DNA of 63,902 nucleotides, the filler included, from Basidiobolus ranarum (taxonomy: Eukaryota): assembly GCA_040143965.1 (NCBI GenBank). It is 48 parts of 48 records of this genome, joined end to end, with 100 filler letters (N's around TTAATTAATTAA, not from the genome) between each part and the next. Parts side by side here need not be neighbours in the genome. Positions count along the whole stretch, not along the records: positions 4,016 to 5,253 come from JASJQH010005874.1; 47 more parts are not named here. One strand, given 5' to 3'. The first letter of the stretch is position 1, and the number at the start of each line of letters is the position of its first letter. Below the pieces are notes generated by a model. That model did not search any database. It saw only the letters and a program-made list of their open reading frames with translations, and was not told the origin of the DNA. The position numbers and the translations under genes are program-made. Below, piece by piece: positions 2,678 through 63,729 of this stretch.

Positions 2678-3915
2678 TTGATTCCCCATCTTAATATTTT
2701 GATGAAATCACCCAAATATAGATCATTGATCCAATACCAAAGTACTCACTGTATAGCTGATGGTATTACTAAGATACTTGATGGATATCACTACCAGAAT
2801 CTGAAAAGTCAAGGTTTCTTTGAGAACATGTATGATCATGCATTTACATTGGCTCTAGATGGTTTCTCACTAAAAAAATATACCATTGGAAAGGCTTGCT
2901 GGCCAATAATTTTAATCAACTTAAATCTTCCTCCTGCTGAATGGTATAACAGTTATAATATCTTGATGCTATCCTTCCTATCTGCACCTAAATCACCTGT
3001 GCTTATAGATAGCTTTTTGGAGCCTTTGATTGTGGAATTTGAATGGTTATCAAATGGGGTTCAGATGGGTGAATATTTTATTAATGCTAATATTATTGTA
3101 TGTATTTGTGACACTCCTGCCATCAGTAAACTTGGAGGTTTTCATGGGCACAATGCATTATCTTGCTGTTGATTTTGTCAAATCGATGGAGTTGACTCTA
3201 ACAGGCATATGCATTACTACTATCCAAATACAACACTAAACTACATGATTTTACTGTCAAGAGCCTGGTCAGATTTTAACATGATCACTGATATCAATTC
3301 ACCAAATAGTTAGTCTAATATCAAACTTGACATTAGCCATAAACCTAAGATTATGTTGCAAAATGGGATCAACTGGAGTCAGAACTTCCCATTAGGCACT
3401 ATGCACTTACTATTGAGCAACGTTAAGATACTACTTACTCAGCTATATAGTGGAAAATTCAATATGAATGAGCCATTCAAAACAGGATCAAGGTTTGAAT
3501 CAATTGGGAAAATGCTTACAAATATCTAGATACCATCATATTTTACCAGGACTCCCATCAATGTCCGCTCATCTAGGCATTTATTTGAATGCAAAGATTA
3601 GAAATATTGGATTTGTATTTATTAAAAGTGAAATTTGGAAAAGATTTCTGCCTGATGAGTATTGGCAACATTGGGATTGGTTTGTGGATATTATTCATAT
3701 ATTCTTATGGCATCAACTCACATTGGCAGATCTAAGACAGATACAGCTACTGTGCAAAGATTTTGTAATTGGATATGAAAAACTTTATTACAGGTTTAAA
3801 GAAGATATACTGAATCTATGCCAGTATTGAATACATTCCCTGCTGCATCTTTCACAATGCTTAGAGATTATAGGCCCTTGCAATACATTCTGGGAGTTCC
3901 CAATGGAGTGCACCT
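2678..3915 (+). mobile_element. CMC/EnSpm transposase catalytic core, decayed
   Basis: ALDGF (D1), NLPP, DTPAISKLGGFHGHNALSCC (D2), PLGTMH and WEFPME (E) in the order expected for tnp2-family transposases. Confidence 0.92.
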
Positions 3916-4449
3916 NNNNNNNNNNNNNNNNNNNNNNNNNNNNNNNNNNNNNNNNNNNNTTAATTAATTAANNNNNNNNNNNNNNNNNNNNNNNNNNNNN
4001 NNNNNNNNNNNNNNNAGATATTATAGTTTGAGGGAGCTTATGTAGGCAGAAGATGTTTTGAGTTACCAATTCTGCTGTTTGTTTTGCATTAATTGACTTG
4101 TTGCAGGGCACAAAGAGGGCCATCTTTGTTAGATGGTCAACAATTACCAGAATTGAATCAAATTGGCAGACAAGGGTAGATCAGTTATGAAATCCAGGGA
4201 TATGGATTTCCACTGCTGATGAGGATTGGGAAGTGGCTGTAGGAGGCCATATGGCAGAAATCTTGGAGTCTTTACTCCAGCACAAGTATCACATGTGGAA
4301 ATATAAGTCTTGACAAATGCAAACATTTTGGGCCACCAATAATCCCTGGATGCCAACATATATGATTTGGCAATACTAAAGTGTCCTGCTAGTGGTGAGT
4401 CATGTCTTTCCTGCATGATTTTGAGTCTGGAAGTGTGGACTGGAATATA

Positions 4450-4731
4450 TATTGAAATTATTTAGGGATAAAAATTGGTCTGGCCAGGGTTTGAACCTGG
4501 GGCCTCCTTCACTCTAGCAAGGTGCTCTAACCACTGAGCTACCAGTCCTTGTATGCTATGCCTATGTTGCTAGGGAACCTTAACCTAGTCTGTCAATGTA
4601 TAGTACTTTGGCATTTCAGCTATTCAAGCAACTGATTGGTCTTAGACTTTGTGTTGAGATGCAGTCACTATACTCCATATTTTACTCTTTAGAAATTACT
4701 GCTTGTACCACAAGTCACCAGACTTTCAACA
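4450..4731. mobile_element. 282-bp solo LTR carrying a tRNA-like sequence (Helenus-type TRIM LTR candidate)
   Basis: Termini TATTGAAA...TTTCAACA; flanking 5-mers ATATA (4445-4449) and ATGTA (4732-4736). The empty site TGGA-ATGTA-AGGG is present in the paralog at 59431-59443. Confidence 0.85.
4476..4548 (-). tRNA. tRNA-like gene or pseudogene (73 nt, AGA at the anticodon position, short variable loop) inside the solo LTR
   Basis: GGACTGG TA GCTC AGTGGTTA GAGC A CCTTG CTAGAGT GAAGG AGGCC CCAGG TTCAAAC CCTGG CCAGACC A folds as a cloverleaf with one mismatch in each of the acceptor and anticodon stems. A and B boxes are present, followed by ATTTTT. Confidence 0.85.
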
Positions 4732-5353
4732 ATGTAAAGGTGCTTCTTATAAAACAAGAGAACTTTGATGATAGAGAAATGGCTGTATAGGTTCAAGCTT
4801 GAGAGGTCTTTTGGTGTTTCCTGGGCCTTCTTAATTGATATTACCAATGGGTCTTCAGATTGGAGTTTGTGAATGTCTTCATGTAATGTGCTAGAACTAA
4901 GCAGAGAAAGGGCAGTTGCACTGATTTGAAGTTGGTGAGGCTTTGGTATGGAAGTATTTTGTTGGCCAAAGGCCTCATCCCCTGCTTTAGACTGATATTC
5001 TGTTCTAGGTGATAAGGCACCAGGCTTTTCATGCTGGCTACCTGGTCAATATATAATCACAAAATCAAAGCTGTCAAGAAATAATGACCATCTTGCTTGA
5101 CAATGGTTGAGAACTTTGATGCTAAAGATTCTTGTGATCACAATAAACTGTGATTTTATGATTTGCTCCATTCAAGTATTGTTGCCATTGTTCAAACCCA
5201 GCAATAATTGCTAATAGTTCCTTGTCATAGATGGCATAGTTGATTTATGCGTCNNNNNNNNNNNNNNNNNNNNNNNNNNNNNNNNNNNNNNNNNNNNTTA
5301 ATTAATTAANNNNNNNNNNNNNNNNNNNNNNNNNNNNNNNNNNNNNNNNNNNN

Positions 5354-6691: not shown

Positions 6692-7036
6692 CTCTATCTT
6701 TATACACCTAACTATCTCATATATCACATATAAGTTAGTTAACATTACTTAGTCAAATATCACTTAGCTGAAAATTGGAACATATTTCATATATGTATGT
6801 GAATAATGTGAGAATTAGCAATTCCATATTGGAAATTTCAAACTCATCCAAATTGCCTCAAAGATAGCTCATTTTACTCCCACAGATGTTCTGAGCACAA
6901 CCCCAGTGTTAGGTTTCCGCATTTCCACCAAAAAGTATAAATGCTTTATTTCTGGACAATAAACAATTATCTCACAGAGCTATTCACAACTCCACTCTTC
7001 TAAAGGTTTCTCCAAACAGCCCATATTTTCCCAATA
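6692..7036 (+). repeat. LTR family A
   Basis: Aligns with 1-290; ends CCCAATA. Confidence 0.85.
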
Positions 7037-7095
7037 GTTTGCTCCTGTAGCAAAGTATAATTCCATCAGAATTGTACTTCCAGTGGCAGCAAAAC

Positions 7096-7413
7096 TGTTG
7101 GAGGATCTTGACATAATGGGGATAGACTTTGAGTATTAGAAGCAACTTATGATCATGCATTTTTAGCTACTTTATTCTTAAGAGTATATGGTGACTTTTA
7201 TAGTAGAAAAGTAAATCAGTTGTTTGAGATATTCAGGAGTTTGTGTAATAAGATATAATAGATAAGTGGGGGTAATAAGACATACTTGTTATATAGATAT
7301 AGAGATATTCCTATTTAGAAGACAGGAGCTATAGATATGTTGCATTCTGTTTCTGATATATGTATCAAAACTAAAGTTAACTATGATGTTAAATAAAGAT
7401 TAGTTATCTAACA
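7096..7413 (-). repeat. Copia 3' LTR (family D) with PPT at 7414-7422
   Basis: On the minus strand the PPT AAGGGAAGG is followed by TGTTAG...CCAACA. Second copy at 50504-50612. Confidence 0.85.
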
Positions 7414-7422
7414 CCTTCCCTT

Positions 7423-7928
7423 AATTCTTATTCAGCATTGTGCTTATATTCACTAATGCCTATTCCTGCTCTGAACCTCTCAAAGCTTGAAGTTTTGAGT
7501 GGTTTTGTCAGTATATCTGCAAGCATGTTTTCAGTATTACAATAAATAAAGTTCACTTCTTTGTCTTGAACTTTCTTCTTGTATATAATGATGTCTTATG
7601 TCAACATGTTTCATCCTTGAGTGATGCTCAGGATTCTTGGTGATCTGAATACCCCTGATATTATCTTGATATGTTGTGGTAGGATTAACTTTATCATATC
7701 CTAGTTCCTTGAGAAGACTCCTTACCATATAGCTTCTTGAACAGCCATAGAGCTTGCCTCCTACTCTGCTTCTATAGTTGTTGACATGACAATATGTTGT
7801 TTCTTGCTACTCCAGCTTATTGGCCCACCTGCTAGCTTAAACACATATCCAGTTCTGGATTTATGGTCTTCTGTATTATTAGCCCAGTCTGCATCAGCAT
7901 ATCCTTTGAAATAAGTGACATGTTGTAC
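7423..7928 (-). mobile_element. Ty1/Copia RNase H fragment
   Basis: GYADADWAN, KNPEHHSRMKHVDIRHH and MLADILTKPL motifs. Confidence 0.92.
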
Positions 7929-20057: not shown

Positions 20058-21293
20058 TTATACTCCACAGCAAAATGCAGTTGCAGAACATGCTAACAGG
20101 ACCATAGTGGAGATGGCAAGATCAATGTTACATGATCAAAAGTCAGATTACCCATTTTGAGCTGAATTGGTCTCCACTGCAGTGTATATCAAAAACAGAT
20201 GCCCAACAAAATCACTACAAAGTTCTACTCCATATGAAGCCCTATATAGATCAAAAACAAGTGTGAATCATCTCAGGATCTTTAGTTGCGCAGCATATTG
20301 CCTAATACCAGCCAAAAACTCTCAAAATTGGAACCCAAAAGCAGAAAATTTATATATCTTGGTTACTTTGATGGTTCCAAGGCCTACAGACTGTTTGATA
20401 TCAAAAATCAGAAGTTAATTAAGTGCGGAGATGTGATTTTTGATGAAAAGCAAAACTTTCACATCAAATCACAGTTCTTGATCCAGAAAACACAAACAGC
20501 TCTTTTCAGGAAGTGTCTGACAAAATTCCATCTGTTTCTGAGCCCTATTTACCAAAATTTCAGTCCCAATTACATCAAAGGTTGATTCAGGACCCAGAAG
20601 ATCATCCAGAAGGAGAAATAAGGCAGGAAACTGGTGGAACACTTCCAATGATGACGTATATGCTTATTGACCATTCTATGACAAGCCACAGACTCTAGAT
20701 CAAGTATGGAGTGTCTAGAATCAAAATTATGGGAAAAAGCAATGTCAGATGAGTTTTCTTCACTTCATGGCAATAAAATGCAATTTTTAAGTCCTCTTCC
20801 ATCAGGGAGAAAGCCAATAGGTTGCAAATGGGTCTACAAAGTCAAAAACCAAGCTGATGGAACCATAGAAAGGTACAAAGCAAGATTGTTTGCCAAAGGC
20901 TATTCCCAGATTCCAGGAGTTGTTTTAGTGAAACTTTTGCTCCAGTAGCTAAGTTTAGCTCCATTAGATCAATCCTGGCACTCTCAGCCATCCAAAACCT
21001 TGATCTACATCAAATGGATGTAAAAACAGCCTTTCTGAATGGAAATCTAGAAGAAGAGTTCTATATGGAGCAACCAGATGGATTTATTGACCGAAAACAT
21101 GGTGGAACACTTCCAATGTTGAGATATATACTTATAGATCATTCTATGACAAGCCACAGACTTTAGATCACACTTTGGAGTATCTAGAATCAAAATTATG
21201 GGAAAAAGCAATATCAGATGAGTTTTTTTCACTTCATGACAATAAAATGCAATTTTTAAGTCCTCTTCCATCAGGGAGAAAGACAATAGGTTG
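20058..21293 (+). mobile_element. Ty1/Copia integrase end and RT start, with an internal duplication
   Basis: TPQQNAVAE, KLEPKSRKFIYLGY, IGCKWVYKVK, RYKARL. Confidence 0.93.
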
Positions 21294-21393: not shown

Positions 21394-22070
21394 TGGCTCA
21401 AAGTAAATACTAAAAATGTCACTGGGTATTGTTCCCTGTGCGAAAAGAGTGTCAACGACGGTAGGAATAATGGATGAACTATCAGGTGATAATGTTCCAA
21501 GAGTCAAATCAGCTGGCCCTAAGCCTAATACACCATCAAATCCACTGAACCCTTGCGACTTAGAGGCAACTCCTATGGATTGCTTTTGAAGTACCAAATT
21601 TTGACCGATTGTCACCGTATCAGTGAACTCGGTTCCAGAGAATGAACCGCTATCATAACTAACCGAAACCGAGTTCGAGGTCTTGACAGAGGTACTTGTG
21701 GGAACGTAGGCTTTACCAGCGCCGATCCACGTATTAGCGGAGTTGGTGTCAATTAACACTTCATAGGACGTGGGAGGACTTCCAATGCCGATAGAAGTAG
21801 TATACTATTCAGATAAAGGAGGGATTAGTTTTAATTCAAACTTGTTTAAGCAAGACAATTGCTTACATGAGTGAGCATATTTGTAGCCGGGATATTTTCT
21901 ACTGCTCTAGGATTCAACCTTCTCCTATGATGGGTGTCGGGGACATAGACAATGGAGCGACGAATTGGTAGAGTATAAACACCATTACTGGAACAACCAT
22001 GAGGAATGACGACTCCAATCGTAGGATGAACAAGAGCCAAGGCTAAGACCAGGGCGATTAACTTTGCCAT
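21394..22070 (-). CDS. Secreted A1 aspartic protease, polyporopepsin-like (5' part; intron 21805-21866)
   Basis: Signal peptide MAKLIALVLALAL; GTAAGC..AG intron; YTTSIGIGSPPTSYEVLIDTNSANTWIG, FDGVLGLGP. Confidence 0.92.
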
Positions 22071-26733: not shown

Positions 26734-27907
26734 CTCCTGGTTGGATTCTTACAAGACTCTAAGCACCTCTAAAGTCAGTCTTTGTAAATACCTAGGCTAC
26801 AGCAAACTAATCACAGAGTGAGTCAGGTGATAGGTCACATGATAAAGTCACTGGATAAGGTCAGGTGACTAGTTAGCAATATAAACAGATATTCAAACAA
26901 GTTGTATAGATATGGCATAAGTTTAAACAGCTTTGTATGTTGGTGCACAACAATCACTACATATATTTCAAGACCATCATAGCCACCAAAGACACAATTG
27001 CTCCCTATGTTGATCAAATCATAATAGTTAGCAATTGCTCAAAGCTCATGTAACAAACTAAGACCTGACTATCTACCAAGTTTGAAATGCAAGATCTAGG
27101 ATCACTAGCATATTTTCTTTGAATGCAGATACATCAAAATTCTGATATTGGAACATGCCATACTACACACAAAAAATACATTGGGGATCTTTTAAACTGA
27201 TTGAATATGTCATAATGTAAGACATCTTCAAATCCACTATCTATGCTGAAACTCTCTAAGGAATTGCAACCACAAACCTCAGAAGATATTGAAAAATAGG
27301 AAGCATATACCTTACTTTTGTGCAGTTGGAAGTCTGATAAAAGCAGTAACTGGCACTAGGCCTAATAATGTGACAGCTGTAAGCATGGTATGTAAATATA
27401 TGAATATTTAGCAATGGAACATTAGATAGTGGTCATACAGATAATATGCTATCTGAGAGGAACAAGACATCATGGAATTCAATATAGTCAGCTATACAAC
27501 ATAGCACTCATTTTGCAAGGATATGCTGAAGCAGACTAGGCTAACAAAATAGCAGACCATAAGTCCAGAACTAGATATGTGCTTAAGCTAACTGGTGGAC
27601 TAACAAGCTGGATTAGTAAGAAACAACAAACTGTTGCATTATTAACTACAGAAGCAGAATATATAGCAAGCTTTATTGCTGTTCAAGAAGCTATATGGCT
27701 AAGGAGTCTTCTCAAGCAATAAGGATATGATCAAGTTAATCCTACCCCAATATATCAAGATAGTATCAGTTATATTGAGATCACCCAAAATCTTGAGCAT
27801 CACTCAAGGATGAATGATATTGACATAAGAGATTGTTTTATATGAGAGAAAGTTCAAGATAAAGAAGTGAACTTTATTTATTGTGATGTTGAAAATTTGC
27901 TTGCCAA
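26734..27907 (+). mobile_element. Ty1/Copia RT-RNase H, heavily decayed; ends at an LTR-A insertion (27908-27968, minus)
   Basis: GYAEAD, SWISKKQQTVAL.TTEAEY; same family as 7423-7928 and 22839-23963. Confidence 0.9.
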
Positions 27908-36069: not shown

Positions 36070-37093
36070 GGAGGCAGCAATTGAAGTGCTAGTAATTCCA
36101 GTTCCCCATTTAGCGGTCTTTTCAGCACCGATGATATAACGAAGTACTTGAAGTCTGAGGTACTCAGAAGAAGAAAGAGGAGCACCTTCGAATGCCAAAG
36201 CGAGGGCACCGTGTTCTCCAGAGAACTCTAAACGAGATTCACCACCATAGTATTTTGAGGAGGCTGATTTTGCCTTAACACCTTGGTCAAGTTTACCGAA
36301 GTGTTGTTGAACAAGACCATCAAGTTGTTCTTTCTCGACTCCGGTACCAACAACACTAATATTTGATCCAACGTAACTTTGGTTCACGAATTGCATTAAA
36401 TCTTCGTAAGTGGCTTTAGATCCAGCCTTGGAGTAAAGAGAGTTACCAAGGCCATTACGGAAGGCAACACTATGAAGAGCCTCGAAGACCTTTATCTCTG
36501 GGTTAGACAAAGATTGCTTGGCTTGTTCTTGAACAAATTTCTTGACATCAAGGTACTCGTATTTGGCAAAATTGGTTTGAGAAATAACATCGGAAAGAAG
36601 CTGTACAAAATAGGGGCTAAGATGGTAGAACGATTAAGACCAGTTAATATCTGACATAATATATATTCGTTACTTACAGATCTTGAGAGAGGAACTCAGC
36701 AGAATATACAAGACTTTCGCGGCCTTGGGATACACTTAGTTGCGCACCTTGAAGCTCAGCTTCACGAGTAATGCGGAAAGCAGAGCGTTCACGAGTATTC
36801 TAATAATTACAAACATAAACCTCGATTCAGACGAAGCATTTCGATTTATATCTTCAATATTATACCTTAAAAGCAAAAGATTTCAAGACTTGGGAAACAC
36901 CAAAGTTGTGAGGGTTCTCGAAACGAGAACCAGCACCAACAACAACTGACAAAGAAGAAACGGGAGAGCTCTCCTCGGAAGCGGCAATACGTACACCATT
37001 AGAAGCAACGGATGTTGCTACAGTGTATGAAGCTCTTTGGATCAAAGGAGCAGTAACAGAAGTAGCTTTCTTTAAGAGAGTGGTTCTGAGCAT
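36070..37093 (-). CDS. QCR2: Cytochrome bc1 core subunit 2, partial (exons 37093-36866, 36799-36678, 36616-36070)
   Basis: Mitochondrial presequence, VGAGSRFE, NTRERSAFRITREAELQG, LHSVAFRNGLGNSLY, YYGGESR; GT..AG introns restore the frame. Confidence 0.93.
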
Positions 37094-49382: not shown

Positions 49383-50061
49383 TAGTATAGGTGCATTGGC
49401 TAATGATTCAAGGGTCTACGGGAAATATAGCCACGCCATAATCATTGAACACAACCAAATGATAGAGTTGGTAATCAACAATTGGGATGGTGATAGTCAC
49501 CCATTTCATCTACATGGACATCAGTTCCAAGTGATGGAGCGTAGCGAGGAGAATGCGGGTGGATACGACTACACCAACAAGCCGGTTAAAGAGCAGGCCA
49601 ATCCCATACGTAGAGATACTGTTCAAGTACCTGCTAACGGTTATGTGGTTATCAGATTTCGCGCTGATAATCCCGGAATATGGCCATTTCATTGTCACAT
49701 TGAATGGCATTTCGAGGCTGGATTGGCTGTAACCATTATTGAAGCACCACAACAAATTCAAGAGCGCATAAAAATCCCCCAACAACTCTTCGATAATTGC
49801 AACGTGTACGGGATTCAAACCACTGGAAATGCAGCCGGTAAACAAGGATTGGACTTGAGTGGCTATTTGGCTGGGCCGAATCCGTTACCTGGTAAATTTA
49901 CCGCCAAAGGGATCTGGGCAATGGTGGGATGTATTTTATCAGCGCTGCTCGGAATAGGCACATTGATATGGTTTTCCAAAGACGAAGCTGCCCCAGTTGA
50001 CACTAGTACGATCGAACATGAAAAAAAGGGAGCTACTGTCGAAGAAGTTCAGGGATCCTAA
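49383..50061 (+). CDS. FET3: Fet3-like membrane-anchored multicopper oxidase, C-terminal fragment
   Basis: HPFHLHGH, RRDT, ADNPGIWPFHCHIEWH and a C-terminal TM helix (GIWAMVGCILSALLGIGTLIWF). Confidence 0.88.
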
Positions 50062-58799: not shown

Positions 58800-59712
58800 C
58801 CGTAAATTCAACTAGAGGCCAGAGTTGTGTCCAATTTTCCTGCTTATAATTGATGGTGCATTGCAAATATAGTTCCAAAACTTGATTGACTCTTTCTGTT
58901 TGGCCAACAGATTGGGGATGGAAAGCAGTGGAGAGATTGACAGAGATACCCAAGGTATGGAGGCAACATTTCCAGAATTAGGAAGCAAACCAAGGTCCTT
59001 GGTAAGAGATGATAGTTTCAGGGAGTCCATGTAGGTGGAAGATGTTTTAAGTTACCAATTCTGCTGTTTGTTATGCATCAATTGACTAGTTGCAGGACAC
59101 AAAGTGGGCCATCTTTGTTAGACAGTCAACAAGTATTTGAATTGAATCATATTTGGCAGACAAGGGTAGATCAGTTATGAAATCCAGGGATATGGATTTC
59201 CACTGCTGATCAGGAATTGGAAGTGGCTGTAGGAGGCCTTAGGGCTGATGTGTTTGAGTCTTCACTCAAGCACATGTATCACAGGTAGAAACAAAAGTCT
59301 TGACAAATTCAAACATTTTGGGCCACCAATAATCCCTGGATGCCAACATATATGATTTGGCAACACCAAAGTGTCCTGCTAGAGGTGAGTCATGTCTTTC
59401 CTGCATGATTTTGAGTCTGGGAGTGTTGTCTGGAATGTAAGGGTACTTCTTATAAAACAAGAGATCATTGATGATAGAGAAAAGGTGGTACAAGCTCAAG
59501 CTTGAGAGGTCTTTGGGTGATTCCTGGGCTTTCTTGATTCATACTACCAATGGGACTTCAGATTGAAGTTTGTGGATGTCTTCATGGAATGTGCTTGTAC
59601 TAGGCAGAGAAAGGGCAGTTGCACTAATTTGAAGTTGGTGGGGCTTCAGTAGAAAATATTTTGATAGCCAAATGCCCCATCCCCTTCTTTAGGCTGATAT
59701 TCTGCTCTACAT
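58800..59712 (-). mobile_element. Ty3/Gypsy integrase, decayed
   Basis: [39 protein letters not shown]; new sequence starting TGTAGT at 59713. Confidence 0.92.
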
Positions 59713-63385: not shown

Positions 63386-63729
63386 TGTTGAGGTTTTTGG
63401 GAGCCTGTTTGAAGCGGTTTGGAGAATCAGAGAAATGGGTAGTTTTTGCTTATGATTTATTGAGTAGAAAGTTGACATTTATAACTTTGTCAAGATGTAA
63501 ACAAACTAACATGTAGAATGTGCTAAGGAAGGTCCCAGGAAAATATGTGCAATGTTTGGGGCTTCTAGCACTAGTTTGAAAGATATATATATCTGAGAAC
63601 TTCAAAGTTAATAATAATCTAAGTAAATTTCTCATGATAATGATGGGTAATATCTTAGTGAAATAGAAGATAACTAAGCACTAAGCTATATATGACTGTA
63701 TATGTGTTTAGGCAATGCTAATTTTAACA
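63386..63729 (-). repeat. Solo LTR family B (344 bp) with decayed 5-bp TSD TTGAC/CCGAC
   Basis: TG...CA termini; homologous to 8029-8325 and 42499-42627. Confidence 0.85.

Follow-up and report, generated by a model that had tools for sequence, protein, structure and literature searches.

What is the 282-bp segment that interrupts a Ty3/Gypsy pol gene in this fungal DNA, and why does it contain a complete tRNA-like sequence? The segment lies near the start of the window, by which we mean the whole stretch of 63,902 bp that was analyzed. An initial annotation had read it as a solo LTR from a Pol III-driven, non-autonomous element, possibly of a new family or from a new host lineage. We considered in turn the insertion, the tRNA-like unit, the anatomy of the segment, its relatives and its host.

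A 282-bp insertion in a Ty3/Gypsy pol gene

A 282-bp insert between ATATA and ATGTA had been proposed for the Gypsy pol, and the alignment to a paralog together with a scan of indels confirms it. In a BLAST search of the window against itself, positions 4016-4449 align with a paralogous copy at 59005-59439 (89.2% identity), and 4731-5007 align with 59434-59709 (86.6% identity). Six paralog bases are common to both flank alignments, and 281-282 bp at 4450-4730/4731 have no counterpart in the paralog. Among all self-hits of the window, six indels were candidates for insertions, and a flank overlap of at least 5 bp was found solely at 4450-4731. The paralog near 59.4 kb likewise proved to be the empty site that had been described, with a single ATGTA. 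The target site duplication (TSD) is 5 bp with four of five bases matching, and the junctions can also be read as a perfect duplication of 3 bp (AAT) or one of 6 bp (5/6). Under the 5-bp reading, the inverted termini of the insert, TATTGAAA...TTTCAACA, abut the TSD directly. The coordinates of all features are collected in Table 1.

A pol ORF in the paralog, 59266-59538, runs uninterrupted across the target site, and the frame is broken in the copy at 4016-5253. A microhomology-mediated deletion in the paralog, instead of an insertion, was rejected because the integrase ORF is unbroken there with the same residues on both sides, and because the tRNA-like unit is foreign to pol. Relative to the paralog, the Gypsy flanks have accumulated 42 transitions and 40 transversions, and a RIP-like bias as the source of the two TG>TA changes is thus unsupported. 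Several Copia fragments (RVT_2, rve, SH3_retrovirus) are also present in the window and are, along with Gypsy, possible helper elements. A fragment of a CACTA/tnp2-type transposase is located near the insert, at 2678-3169.

Table 1. Features of the insert, its target site and the interrupted element
Feature	Position	Strand	Remarks
Ty3/Gypsy pol fragment, integrase zinc-binding region	4016..4449	-	pol-downstream side of insert; Integrase_H2C2 E 6.7e-19 at 4144-4449
Left TSD copy	4445..4449	.	ATATA, one G>A relative to target ATGTA; flanks both align onto paralog 59434/5-59439
Insert read as solo LTR, 282 bp	4450..4731	-	minus-strand reading 5' TGTTGAAA...TTTCAATA 3'
Putative U5-like tail, 20 nt	4450..4469	-	from T5 run to LTR 3' end
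T5 run, Pol III terminator-like	4470..4474	-	one base past the tRNA-like 3' end
tRNA-like cloverleaf, 73 nt	4476..4548	-	anticodon AGA, short variable loop; putative Pol III promoter and R region
B box GGTTCAAACCC	4487..4497	-	tRNA positions 52-62; GGTTC present
A box TAGCTCAGTGG	4531..4541	-	tRNA positions 8-18; fits TRGCY...YGG (TAGCT...TGG)
Putative U3-like part, 183 nt	4549..4731	-	upstream of tRNA-like unit; similar to nothing else found
Right TSD copy	4732..4736	.	ATGTA
Ty3/Gypsy pol fragment, RNase H to integrase N-terminus	4737..5253	-	pol-upstream side of insert; RT_RNaseH E 1.2e-10 at 5122-5244
Empty target site, paralogous Gypsy copy	59435..59439	.	single ATGTA

A tRNA-like unit with Pol III signals

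The insert had been described as holding a 73-nt minus-strand cloverleaf with an A box, a B box and a T5 terminator, and ARAGORN, Rfam and the pairing pattern agree on the cloverleaf; both boxes and the T5 run can be read in the sequence. ARAGORN finds the unit as the sole tRNA in the whole window and calls it Ser(aga). The Rfam tRNA model gives it 56.3 bits (E 3.5e-11), the gathering score being 29. No other Rfam model matches at E<=0.1 in the whole window, and in 4000-5200 the tRNA model alone lies above its gathering score at E<=1. Of 21 stem pairs, 19 are formed; the acceptor stem has an A.A mismatch and the anticodon stem a G.G mismatch. By free energy, the 73-nt unit folds no better than shuffled sequences do (z 0.22; 112 of 200 shuffles fold equally well), so that the cloverleaf call rests on the covariance model, thermodynamic folding not singling it out. 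In its own sense, the unit occupies bases 184-256 of the 282, which leaves 26 nt between it and the end of the LTR.

In eukaryotes, the variable arm of tRNA-Ser is long. Because the AGA anticodon here comes with a short variable loop, the sequence argues against a working tRNA-Ser and suggests a tRNA derivative instead, and the two stem mismatches point the same way. An 8-nt repeat, ATTGGTCT (4474-4481 and 4635-4642), was considered as a TSD that a later insertion of a tRNA might have left. It was rejected because it overlaps the acceptor stem, would place the tRNA at the 3' end of its insert, and occurs at chance-level frequency.

Anatomy of the insert

The LTR strand of 4450-4731 was assumed from the sense of the tRNA-like unit. 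The 8-bp inverted termini of the insert are of the TA/TG...CA type and complementary at seven of eight positions, with one G>A at the TG end. To gauge chance, 200,000 mock 282-bp 'inserts' were drawn from the window. A TSD matching at four or more of five bases was seen among these at a frequency of 0.023, inverted termini matching at seven or more of eight at 0.00054, and both together at 2.5e-5. The insert has no poly(A) tail and no internal repeat pair, its longest direct repeat being 12 nt; for want of an internal LTR pair, we rejected the possibility that it is a complete 282-bp miniature TRIM of the SMART-like kind. The TSDs lie directly at both ends of the unit, as expected of a solo LTR. 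The initial reading as a solo LTR thus stands as regards anatomy, namely the inverted TG/CA-type termini, the 5-bp TSD and the lack of a poly(A) tail or internal repeat pair; from these features we infer that the segment is an LTR.

Likeness to Helenus elements

The initial annotation had pointed to Helenus, a family whose LTRs bear tRNA-like sequence and whose fungal members make TSDs of 5 bp. That family is real (Kojima 2024, Biology 13:119, PMC10886601). Helenus elements are miniature LTR retrotransposons (TRIMs, termed 'TRIMp3') of 311-1263 bp in total, in which two LTRs of 120-323 bp surround a short non-coding internal region with a PBS and a PPT; box A (TRGCY...YGG) and box B (GGTTC) of the tRNA-like sequence are conserved (PMC10886601). 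Fungal members have 5-bp TSDs, carry Copia-type PBSs of the anticodon-loop kind, are helped by Copia elements, and commonly occur as solo LTRs (PMC10886601). As a rule, the isotype and anticodon of the tRNA-like part disagree and it does not function as a tRNA; it is often miscalled as tRNA-Ser-AGA, with such calls frequent from Helenus-9_PSt, Helenus-2_UVF and Helenus-6_CroRib (PMC10886601). Where a tRNA type is over-represented among the predicted genes of rusts, as tRNA-Ser-AGA is, Helenus accounts for most of those predictions (PMC10886601). Kojima proposes that such tRNA-LTR chimeras are born repeatedly, through SINE insertion into the LTR of a TRIM (PMC10886601).

The segment shows every structural feature of Helenus that a solo copy can display. 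Tallied against the published description, it carries tRNA-derived sequence with A and B boxes inside an LTR whose length, 282 bp, lies within the published range. Its TSD is 5 bp, as in the fungal families (ATATA/ATGTA, 4/5), and its short inverted termini are of the TG...CA type (7/8 complementary). The AGA anticodon is shared with several rust families, and the tRNA-like part may not be a true tRNA of the isotype that this anticodon suggests. The element differs in its host, a Basidiobolus-like early-diverging fungus and not a member of Pucciniales or Agaricomycetes, and in that it is known from one solo copy, which shows neither a PBS nor a PPT and is likened to Helenus by described features. 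By those features, 4450-4731 is probably a Helenus-type solo LTR.

Comparison with other known systems

Small-RNA modules within LTRs are also known from Cassandra, a group of plant TRIMs described by Kalendar and co-workers. The Cassandra LTR holds a 5S unit with promoter and terminator, which in ferns can lie 8 nt from the PBS (PMC7215508). Cassandra is the sole experimentally validated Pol III-transcribed TRIM (PMC10886601). The likeness consists in a small-RNA module with Pol III promoter and terminator in the PBS-proximal part of the LTR, 26 nt from the LTR end in our case. The module, however, is 5S there and tRNA-like here, and the hosts are vascular plants as opposed to a fungus. Rfam gave no 5S match in 4000-5200 or in the whole window. 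Cassandra and the 282-bp unit are certainly of independent origin.

In a SINE, the tRNA head comes first and the element closes with a tail that is rich in A or derived from a LINE; insertion depends on LINE enzymes, and the TSDs are variable. The segment resembles the tRNA-derived ones (SINE2) in that its putative Pol III promoter derives from a tRNA and that both are short, non-coding and interspersed. It differs from them in the position of the tRNA-like unit near the 3' end, in the inverted TG/CA termini and in a TSD of about 5 bp. Fungal solo LTRs of Ty1/Copia and Ty3/Gypsy elements, such as yeast delta and sigma, arise from LTR-LTR recombination and have TG...CA ends and 5-bp TSDs. LTRs of the delta and sigma type contain Pol II signals and often lie beside tRNA genes, none of which they contain. 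The segment is like these ordinary solo LTRs in size, ends and TSD, but unlike them holds a full tRNA-like cloverleaf with a terminator.

Weighing the alternatives

Taken together, these observations lead us to favor, by a modest degree, a solo LTR of a Helenus-type element with a tRNA-derived Pol III unit, integrated into a dead Ty3/Gypsy copy. In the nearest competing reading, the solo LTR stems from a conventional LTR retrotransposon driven by Pol II, be it autonomous or a non-autonomous derivative, and simply includes a sequence of tRNA origin. All members of the family might carry that sequence, with no part for it in transcription, or it might have been gained by this copy or lineage alone. 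Such an LTR would be expected to have identical LTR-type ends and TSD, and 'not a few' LTRs in Repbase contain tRNA-like sequence, TRIMs being only some of those (PMC10886601). The T5 run adjoining the tRNA-like unit also speaks against efficient full-length Pol III RNA. However, the unit is no mere fragment but a complete cloverleaf with both boxes canonically spaced and a terminator of its own, and a length of 282 bp falls inside the 120-323 bp of Helenus LTRs. If the piece had come in by secondary insertion, a SINE or tRNA retro-insertion should have left a TSD or an A-rich tail, and neither brackets the tRNA segment; the sole flanking repeat is the 8-mer discussed above, part of which lies in the acceptor stem and which is no more than chance would give. 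We regard a Pol II-driven origin as unlikely, though it deserves serious attention.

Other readings would remove the segment from LTR elements altogether. A MITE-like non-autonomous DNA transposon, or some unclassified element, with 8-bp TIRs, a tRNA-like segment and a TSD of 3 bp (AAT) or 5-6 bp strikes us as improbable. TIRs with a TSD mark MITEs as well, the junctions can be read as a perfect AAT duplication, and the CACTA/tnp2-type transposase fragment is close by. Yet a 3-bp TSD would make the inverted termini asymmetric about the junctions, those termini are TG...CA-type and not CACTA-type, and the 282-bp unit contains no long TIRs or subterminal repeats. To our knowledge, Transib is the sole superfamily associated with 5-bp TSDs, and its ends differ. 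An origin as a SINE of tRNA descent, or from a genomic tRNA locus that was captured or retro-copied, is more improbable still, even though a tRNA gene, or the head of a SINE, would show such a tRNA-like unit with A box, B box and T run. Against a SINE, the tRNA-like unit, read in its own sense, starts not at the 5' end but at base 184 of the 282; the 3' end (...CCCTAAATAATTTCAATA) lacks a tail, whether A-rich or of simple repeats; the TSD has a short, fixed length; and the ends are inverted and of the TG/CA type. For a captured tRNA locus, inverted termini abutting the TSD would be unexpected.

A possible life cycle of the parent element

For the Helenus-type reading, the following course of events can be envisaged. 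An LTR retrotransposon would have entered an already dead Ty3/Gypsy copy, duplicating 5 bp of the target, and LTR-LTR recombination would then have left the solo LTR of 282 bp. Helenus-type TRIMs have just this build, with a tRNA-derived Pol III unit in the LTR, and the parent was therefore most likely short and non-autonomous, an autonomous LTR retrotransposon mobilizing it in trans. In a copy with both LTRs, Pol III would be recruited to boxes A and B in the 5' LTR, and transcription would begin at, or just before, +1 of the tRNA-like unit. It would continue past the weak T5 run through U5, the PBS, a short internal stretch, the PPT and U3 of the 3' LTR, until the T5 run of that LTR ends it. 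The tRNA-like unit, about 78 nt, would serve as the R repeat for strand transfer, with a U3 of 183 nt and a U5 of about 20 nt. Directly following the tRNA-like unit, a T5 run would end most Pol III transcripts at about 80 nt, and the model of a Pol III-made genomic RNA therefore needs read-through. A terminator right behind the promoter unit makes this element a concrete test case for Pol III-made RNA as the genome of an LTR element.

Searches for relatives

A second copy of the 282-bp unit was not found in the 64-kb window, the best non-self match being 23 nt with E 0.63 (BLASTN, word size 7). ARAGORN and Rfam found no second tRNA-like unit there either. A 49-aa ORF within the unit (4584-4730, plus strand) served as a proxy query for copies among predicted proteins. 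It gave no candidate in a word-indexed protein library at lengths of 26-86 aa and no match among 1.84 billion representative proteins. Exact-pattern scans with short stretches of the unit returned no matches in viral contigs (two scans) or in prokaryote genome contigs (two scans), and a scan of metagenome contigs with a 22-mer from the unit was likewise blank. An 18-mer from the unit matched eight metagenome loci, each over 18-21 nt only, and we attribute these to chance because the similarity spans merely that length. The blanks in the viral, metagenome, prokaryote and protein collections weigh little, since none of these is expected to contain this fungus; they lend no support either.

Host lineage and reach of the finding

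The products of two host genes in the window share 76-81% identity with proteins of Basidiobolus. A rust host, which the likeness to Helenus had led us to expect, was rejected on these two markers. Since the host genes are closest to Basidiobolus, the host is an early-diverging fungus and lies outside the reported fungal range of Helenus, which consists of the rusts (Pucciniales, 113 families) and three Agaricomycetes only (PMC10886601). In the portion of the literature available to us, we found no report of Helenus/TRIMp3 or of other tRNA-bearing LTRs in Basidiobolus or other early-diverging fungi. Zoopagomycota and Mucoromycota go unmentioned in the available main text on Helenus, the supplementary Table S1 of which lists the genomes screened (PMC10886601).

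The suggestion of a new family or a new host lineage therefore survives in its second half. With Basidiobolus set against Pucciniales and three Agaricomycetes, the Basidiobolus lineage is likely a new host lineage for Helenus-type elements. The 282-bp unit is probably a new host record and not a new kind of element. A fuller claim, which we advance tentatively and with somewhat more doubt than confidence, would be that this is the first trace in the Basidiobolus lineage (Zoopagomycota), far outside the reported Dikarya hosts, of a Pol III-driven LTR retrotransposon with a tRNA promoter (Helenus-type TRIMp3), in which the tRNA-like unit with its leaky T5 forms the R repeat.

If this is true, tRNA-LTR chimeras either arose independently once again or are much older and more widespread in fungi than described. 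A member in the Basidiobolus lineage would extend the range of Helenus to early-diverging fungi and would bear on the repeated birth of chimeras. As a single decayed solo copy within a Gypsy element that is itself dead, the segment does not evidently affect its host. Part of the predicted tRNA genes in such genomes would, if the claim holds, be transposon debris. Because Helenus-type elements raise the number of predicted tRNA genes, spurious tRNA-Ser(AGA) calls, such as that made by ARAGORN here, are to be expected when TE-rich zygomycete genomes are annotated.

An insertion in a Gypsy pol gene

The sequence broken by the 282-bp insert (4450-4731, minus strand in the sense of its tRNA-like part) is a Ty3/Gypsy pol. 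In a self-BLAST of the window, 4016-4449 aligned with 59005-59439 of an uninterrupted paralog at 89.2% identity and 4731-5007 aligned with 59434-59709 at 86.6%. These flanks are contiguous in the paralog, overlapping there by 6 bases, and nothing in it corresponds to the 281-282 bp at 4450-4730/4731. The paralog ORF (59266-59538) runs unbroken across the insertion site with the residues, FYKK...RLKIMQERHDSPLAGHF, that flank the insert on both sides, which rules out a deletion in the paralog and indicates insertion into the Gypsy copy. Self-BLAST, pol domains and the paralog ORF thus agree with the initial annotation, which had described an interrupted Gypsy pol and an empty paralog site.

The junctions read ...GGAATATA/TATTGAAA......TTTCAACA/ATGTAAAGG, slashes marking the boundaries, and the empty site reads ...GGAATGTAAGGG. 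They are most naturally read as a 282-bp unit bounded by inverted termini of 8 bp (7/8 complementary; one G>A change from TG...CA) and flanked by a target-site duplication, TSD, of 5 bp (ATATA vs ATGTA, 4/5 matching). A perfect 3-bp (AAT) or a 6-bp (5/6) TSD is formally possible, but either leaves the inverted termini asymmetric. Among 200,000 mock inserts drawn from the window, an equally good TSD occurred at a frequency of 0.023, equally good termini at 0.00054 and both jointly at 2.5e-5. The 5-bp TSD proposed earlier holds as the natural reading. Six candidate insertion-type indels were found among all window self-hits, and only 4450-4731 has a flank overlap of at least 5 bp.

Across 704 aligned bases the two Gypsy copies show 82 differences (42 transitions, 40 transversions). 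The Gypsy copy hosting the insert is old and sets an upper bound on the age of the insert. The pol containing the insert lies between the two copies of a 292-bp direct repeat (93.5% identity, spacing 6.7 kb). These copies may be the LTR pair of this Gypsy element, the left one being truncated at the window edge. The end sequence of the repeat, ...CCCATATTTTCCCAATA, is found again at ~22.8 kb and ~27.9 kb.

Positions of the main features in the window
Feature	Position	Strand	Remark
Integrase_H2C2	4144-4449	-	E 6.7e-19
RT_RNaseH	5122-5244	-	domain match in interrupted Gypsy pol
T5 run	4470-4474	-	one base past 3' end of tRNA-like unit
B box GGTTCAAACCC	4487-4497	-	canonical
A box TAGCTCAGTGG	4531-4541	-	canonical
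292-bp direct repeat	1-291 and 6746-7037		
Transposase_21 (tnp2, CACTA-type) fragment	2678-3169	+	E 2.7e-13
Aspartyl protease fragment	21394-21804	-	Pfam Asp, E 6.9e-20
Cytochrome bc1 complex subunit 2 fragment	36070-36633	-	Peptidase_M16/M16_C
Fet3-type multicopper ferroxidase, C-terminal exon	49384-50058	+	transmembrane tail

A tRNA-like unit within the insert

Over the full 63,902 bp ARAGORN calls a single tRNA, Ser(aga) at 4476-4548 on the minus strand. The same segment scores 56.3 bits against the Rfam tRNA model (gathering score 29) and is the sole Rfam match at E<=0.1 across the window. The cloverleaf forms 19 of 21 stem pairs, with an A.A mismatch in the acceptor stem and a G.G in the anticodon stem, and has a short variable loop. 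Together with the A box, B box and T5 run, this confirms the minus-strand cassette noticed initially. Energy folding did not distinguish the cloverleaf (z 0.22); its support comes from the covariance model. Eukaryotic tRNA-Ser is a long-variable-arm tRNA. The AGA anticodon on a short-variable-loop scaffold therefore suggests a tRNA derivative rather than a working tRNA-Ser. In the element's own sense it occupies bases 184-256 of 282, preceded by 183 nt and followed by 26 nt.

Identity of the insert

The initial annotation named Helenus, a group of miniature LTR retrotransposons (TRIMs) with tRNA-like sequence in the LTR, and this family is indeed described in PMC10886601. Helenus elements have conserved box A (TRGCY...YGG) and box B (GGTTC) motifs, LTRs of 120-323 bp, numerous solo LTRs and, in fungi, 5-bp TSDs; the predicted isotype of their tRNA-like parts is usually at odds with the anticodon (PMC10886601). 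Most predicted tRNA-Ser-AGA genes in rusts are Helenus: 28/44 in P. striiformis, 90/95 in U. viciae-fabae and 154/160 in C. ribicola (PMC10886601, Table 2). Apart from the isotype disagreement, each of these features that one solo LTR could show is found in the insert; from this one copy, four features support membership and none contradicts it. Cassandra, the validated Pol III TRIM of plants, is similar in that its 5S unit lies inside the LTR together with both promoter and terminator, down to 8 nt from the PBS (PMC7215508). The insert differs in carrying a tRNA-like unit and no 5S match (Rfam), and Cassandra-like content was rejected.

We somewhat favor a Helenus-type solo LTR. The solo LTR of a Pol III-driven non-autonomous element proposed at the outset is supported in part, by the LTR-type ends, the TSD and the Helenus-like features. 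An ordinary LTR merely containing a tRNA piece is a rather unlikely but still serious alternative. Within the insert the tRNA segment is bracketed by neither a TSD nor a tail, hence there is no sign that a SINE or tRNA entered this copy late. It is improbable that the insert is a MITE-like element, and a SINE or captured tRNA locus is more improbable still; SINE identity was rejected because the tRNA-like part lies away from the 5' end and the insert lacks a tail. A complete miniature element was also rejected, the longest internal direct repeat being 12 nt. The 282-bp unit is single-copy in the window, and searches of viral, metagenome and prokaryote contigs and two protein libraries returned nothing beyond 8 chance 18-mer matches.

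If the insert is a Helenus-type LTR, the A and B boxes in the 5' LTR of a full copy would recruit TFIIIC and Pol III, and transcription would start at the tRNA-like +1. To yield a replicable RNA, the polymerase would have to pass the first T5 and continue through a U5 of ~20 nt, the PBS, a short internal region, the PPT and, in the 3' LTR, the 183-nt U3 before ending at the second T5. Five Ts terminate Pol III only weakly in yeast, and read-through would thereby be permitted; this putative step is the weakest in the model. For the most part, initiation would yield only a ~80-nt tRNA-like RNA, and this would apply to a solo LTR such as 4450-4731 as well. The tRNA-like unit (~78 nt) could serve as the R repeat for first-strand transfer, with reverse transcriptase and integrase supplied by an autonomous element, putatively Copia. 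Several Copia fragments are present in the window, and the helper of fungal Helenus is Copia (PMC10886601).

Host lineage

The Fet3-type exon, set among transposon fragments, has its best matches in proteins of Basidiobolus ranarum (76% identity) and B. meristosporus (75%), with the next best at 58%; Basidiobolus paralogs are 71-73% identical among themselves. For the bc1 subunit 2 fragment, identity is 81% to B. meristosporus, followed by 51% (B. ranarum) and ~40% (Glomeromycotina), which suggests a source closer to B. meristosporus. These identities show that the host is no rust but a fungus of the Basidiobolus lineage. In the main text of PMC10886601, the fungal hosts reported for Helenus are limited to Pucciniales, Agaricus, Coprinopsis and Amylostereum, and neither Zoopagomycota nor Mucoromycota is mentioned. 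We found no literature report of Helenus in Basidiobolus or other early-diverging fungi, a result that the supplementary genome list and consensus sequences of that paper could alter. The insert is thus probably a further representative of the kind described in 2024, and probably in a new host lineage, a possibility raised in the initial annotation.

Rest of the window

The remainder (window G+C 34.3%) is a mosaic of transposon fragments, namely Gypsy, Copia (RVT_2, rve, SH3_retrovirus) and tnp2/CACTA-type transposase, and three host-gene pieces: the ferroxidase, bc1 subunit 2 and aspartyl protease. The protease fragment is eukaryotic, lies beside Copia debris and is apparently a host gene piece. 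Transposase_21 has paralogs at ~17.5 kb, 32.1 kb and 47 kb, so this DNA-transposon family is also abundant in the genome. Filler consists of paired 44-N blocks around TTAATTAATTAA about every 1,338 bp (e.g. 1240-1283, 1296-1339; 94 blocks, 4,136 N). The blocks do not resemble assembly gaps. None touches the insert; they cut several repeats and make it difficult to delimit LTR pairs. A direct repeat of ~200 bp (20628-20824 and 21095-21293; 92% identity, 467 bp apart), whose second copy meets an N block, was rejected as a miniature LTR pair, since its position within coding sequence for Copia RT makes it a tandem duplication of that sequence. Three stretches, 63479-63669 (191 bp), 7037-7512 (476 bp) and 27528-27907 (380 bp), are missing from paralogous copies with flank overlaps of 1-3 bp, and none has TG...CA ends or a 5-bp TSD. 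A small insertion that duplicated AT/ATA may account for the 191-bp stretch.
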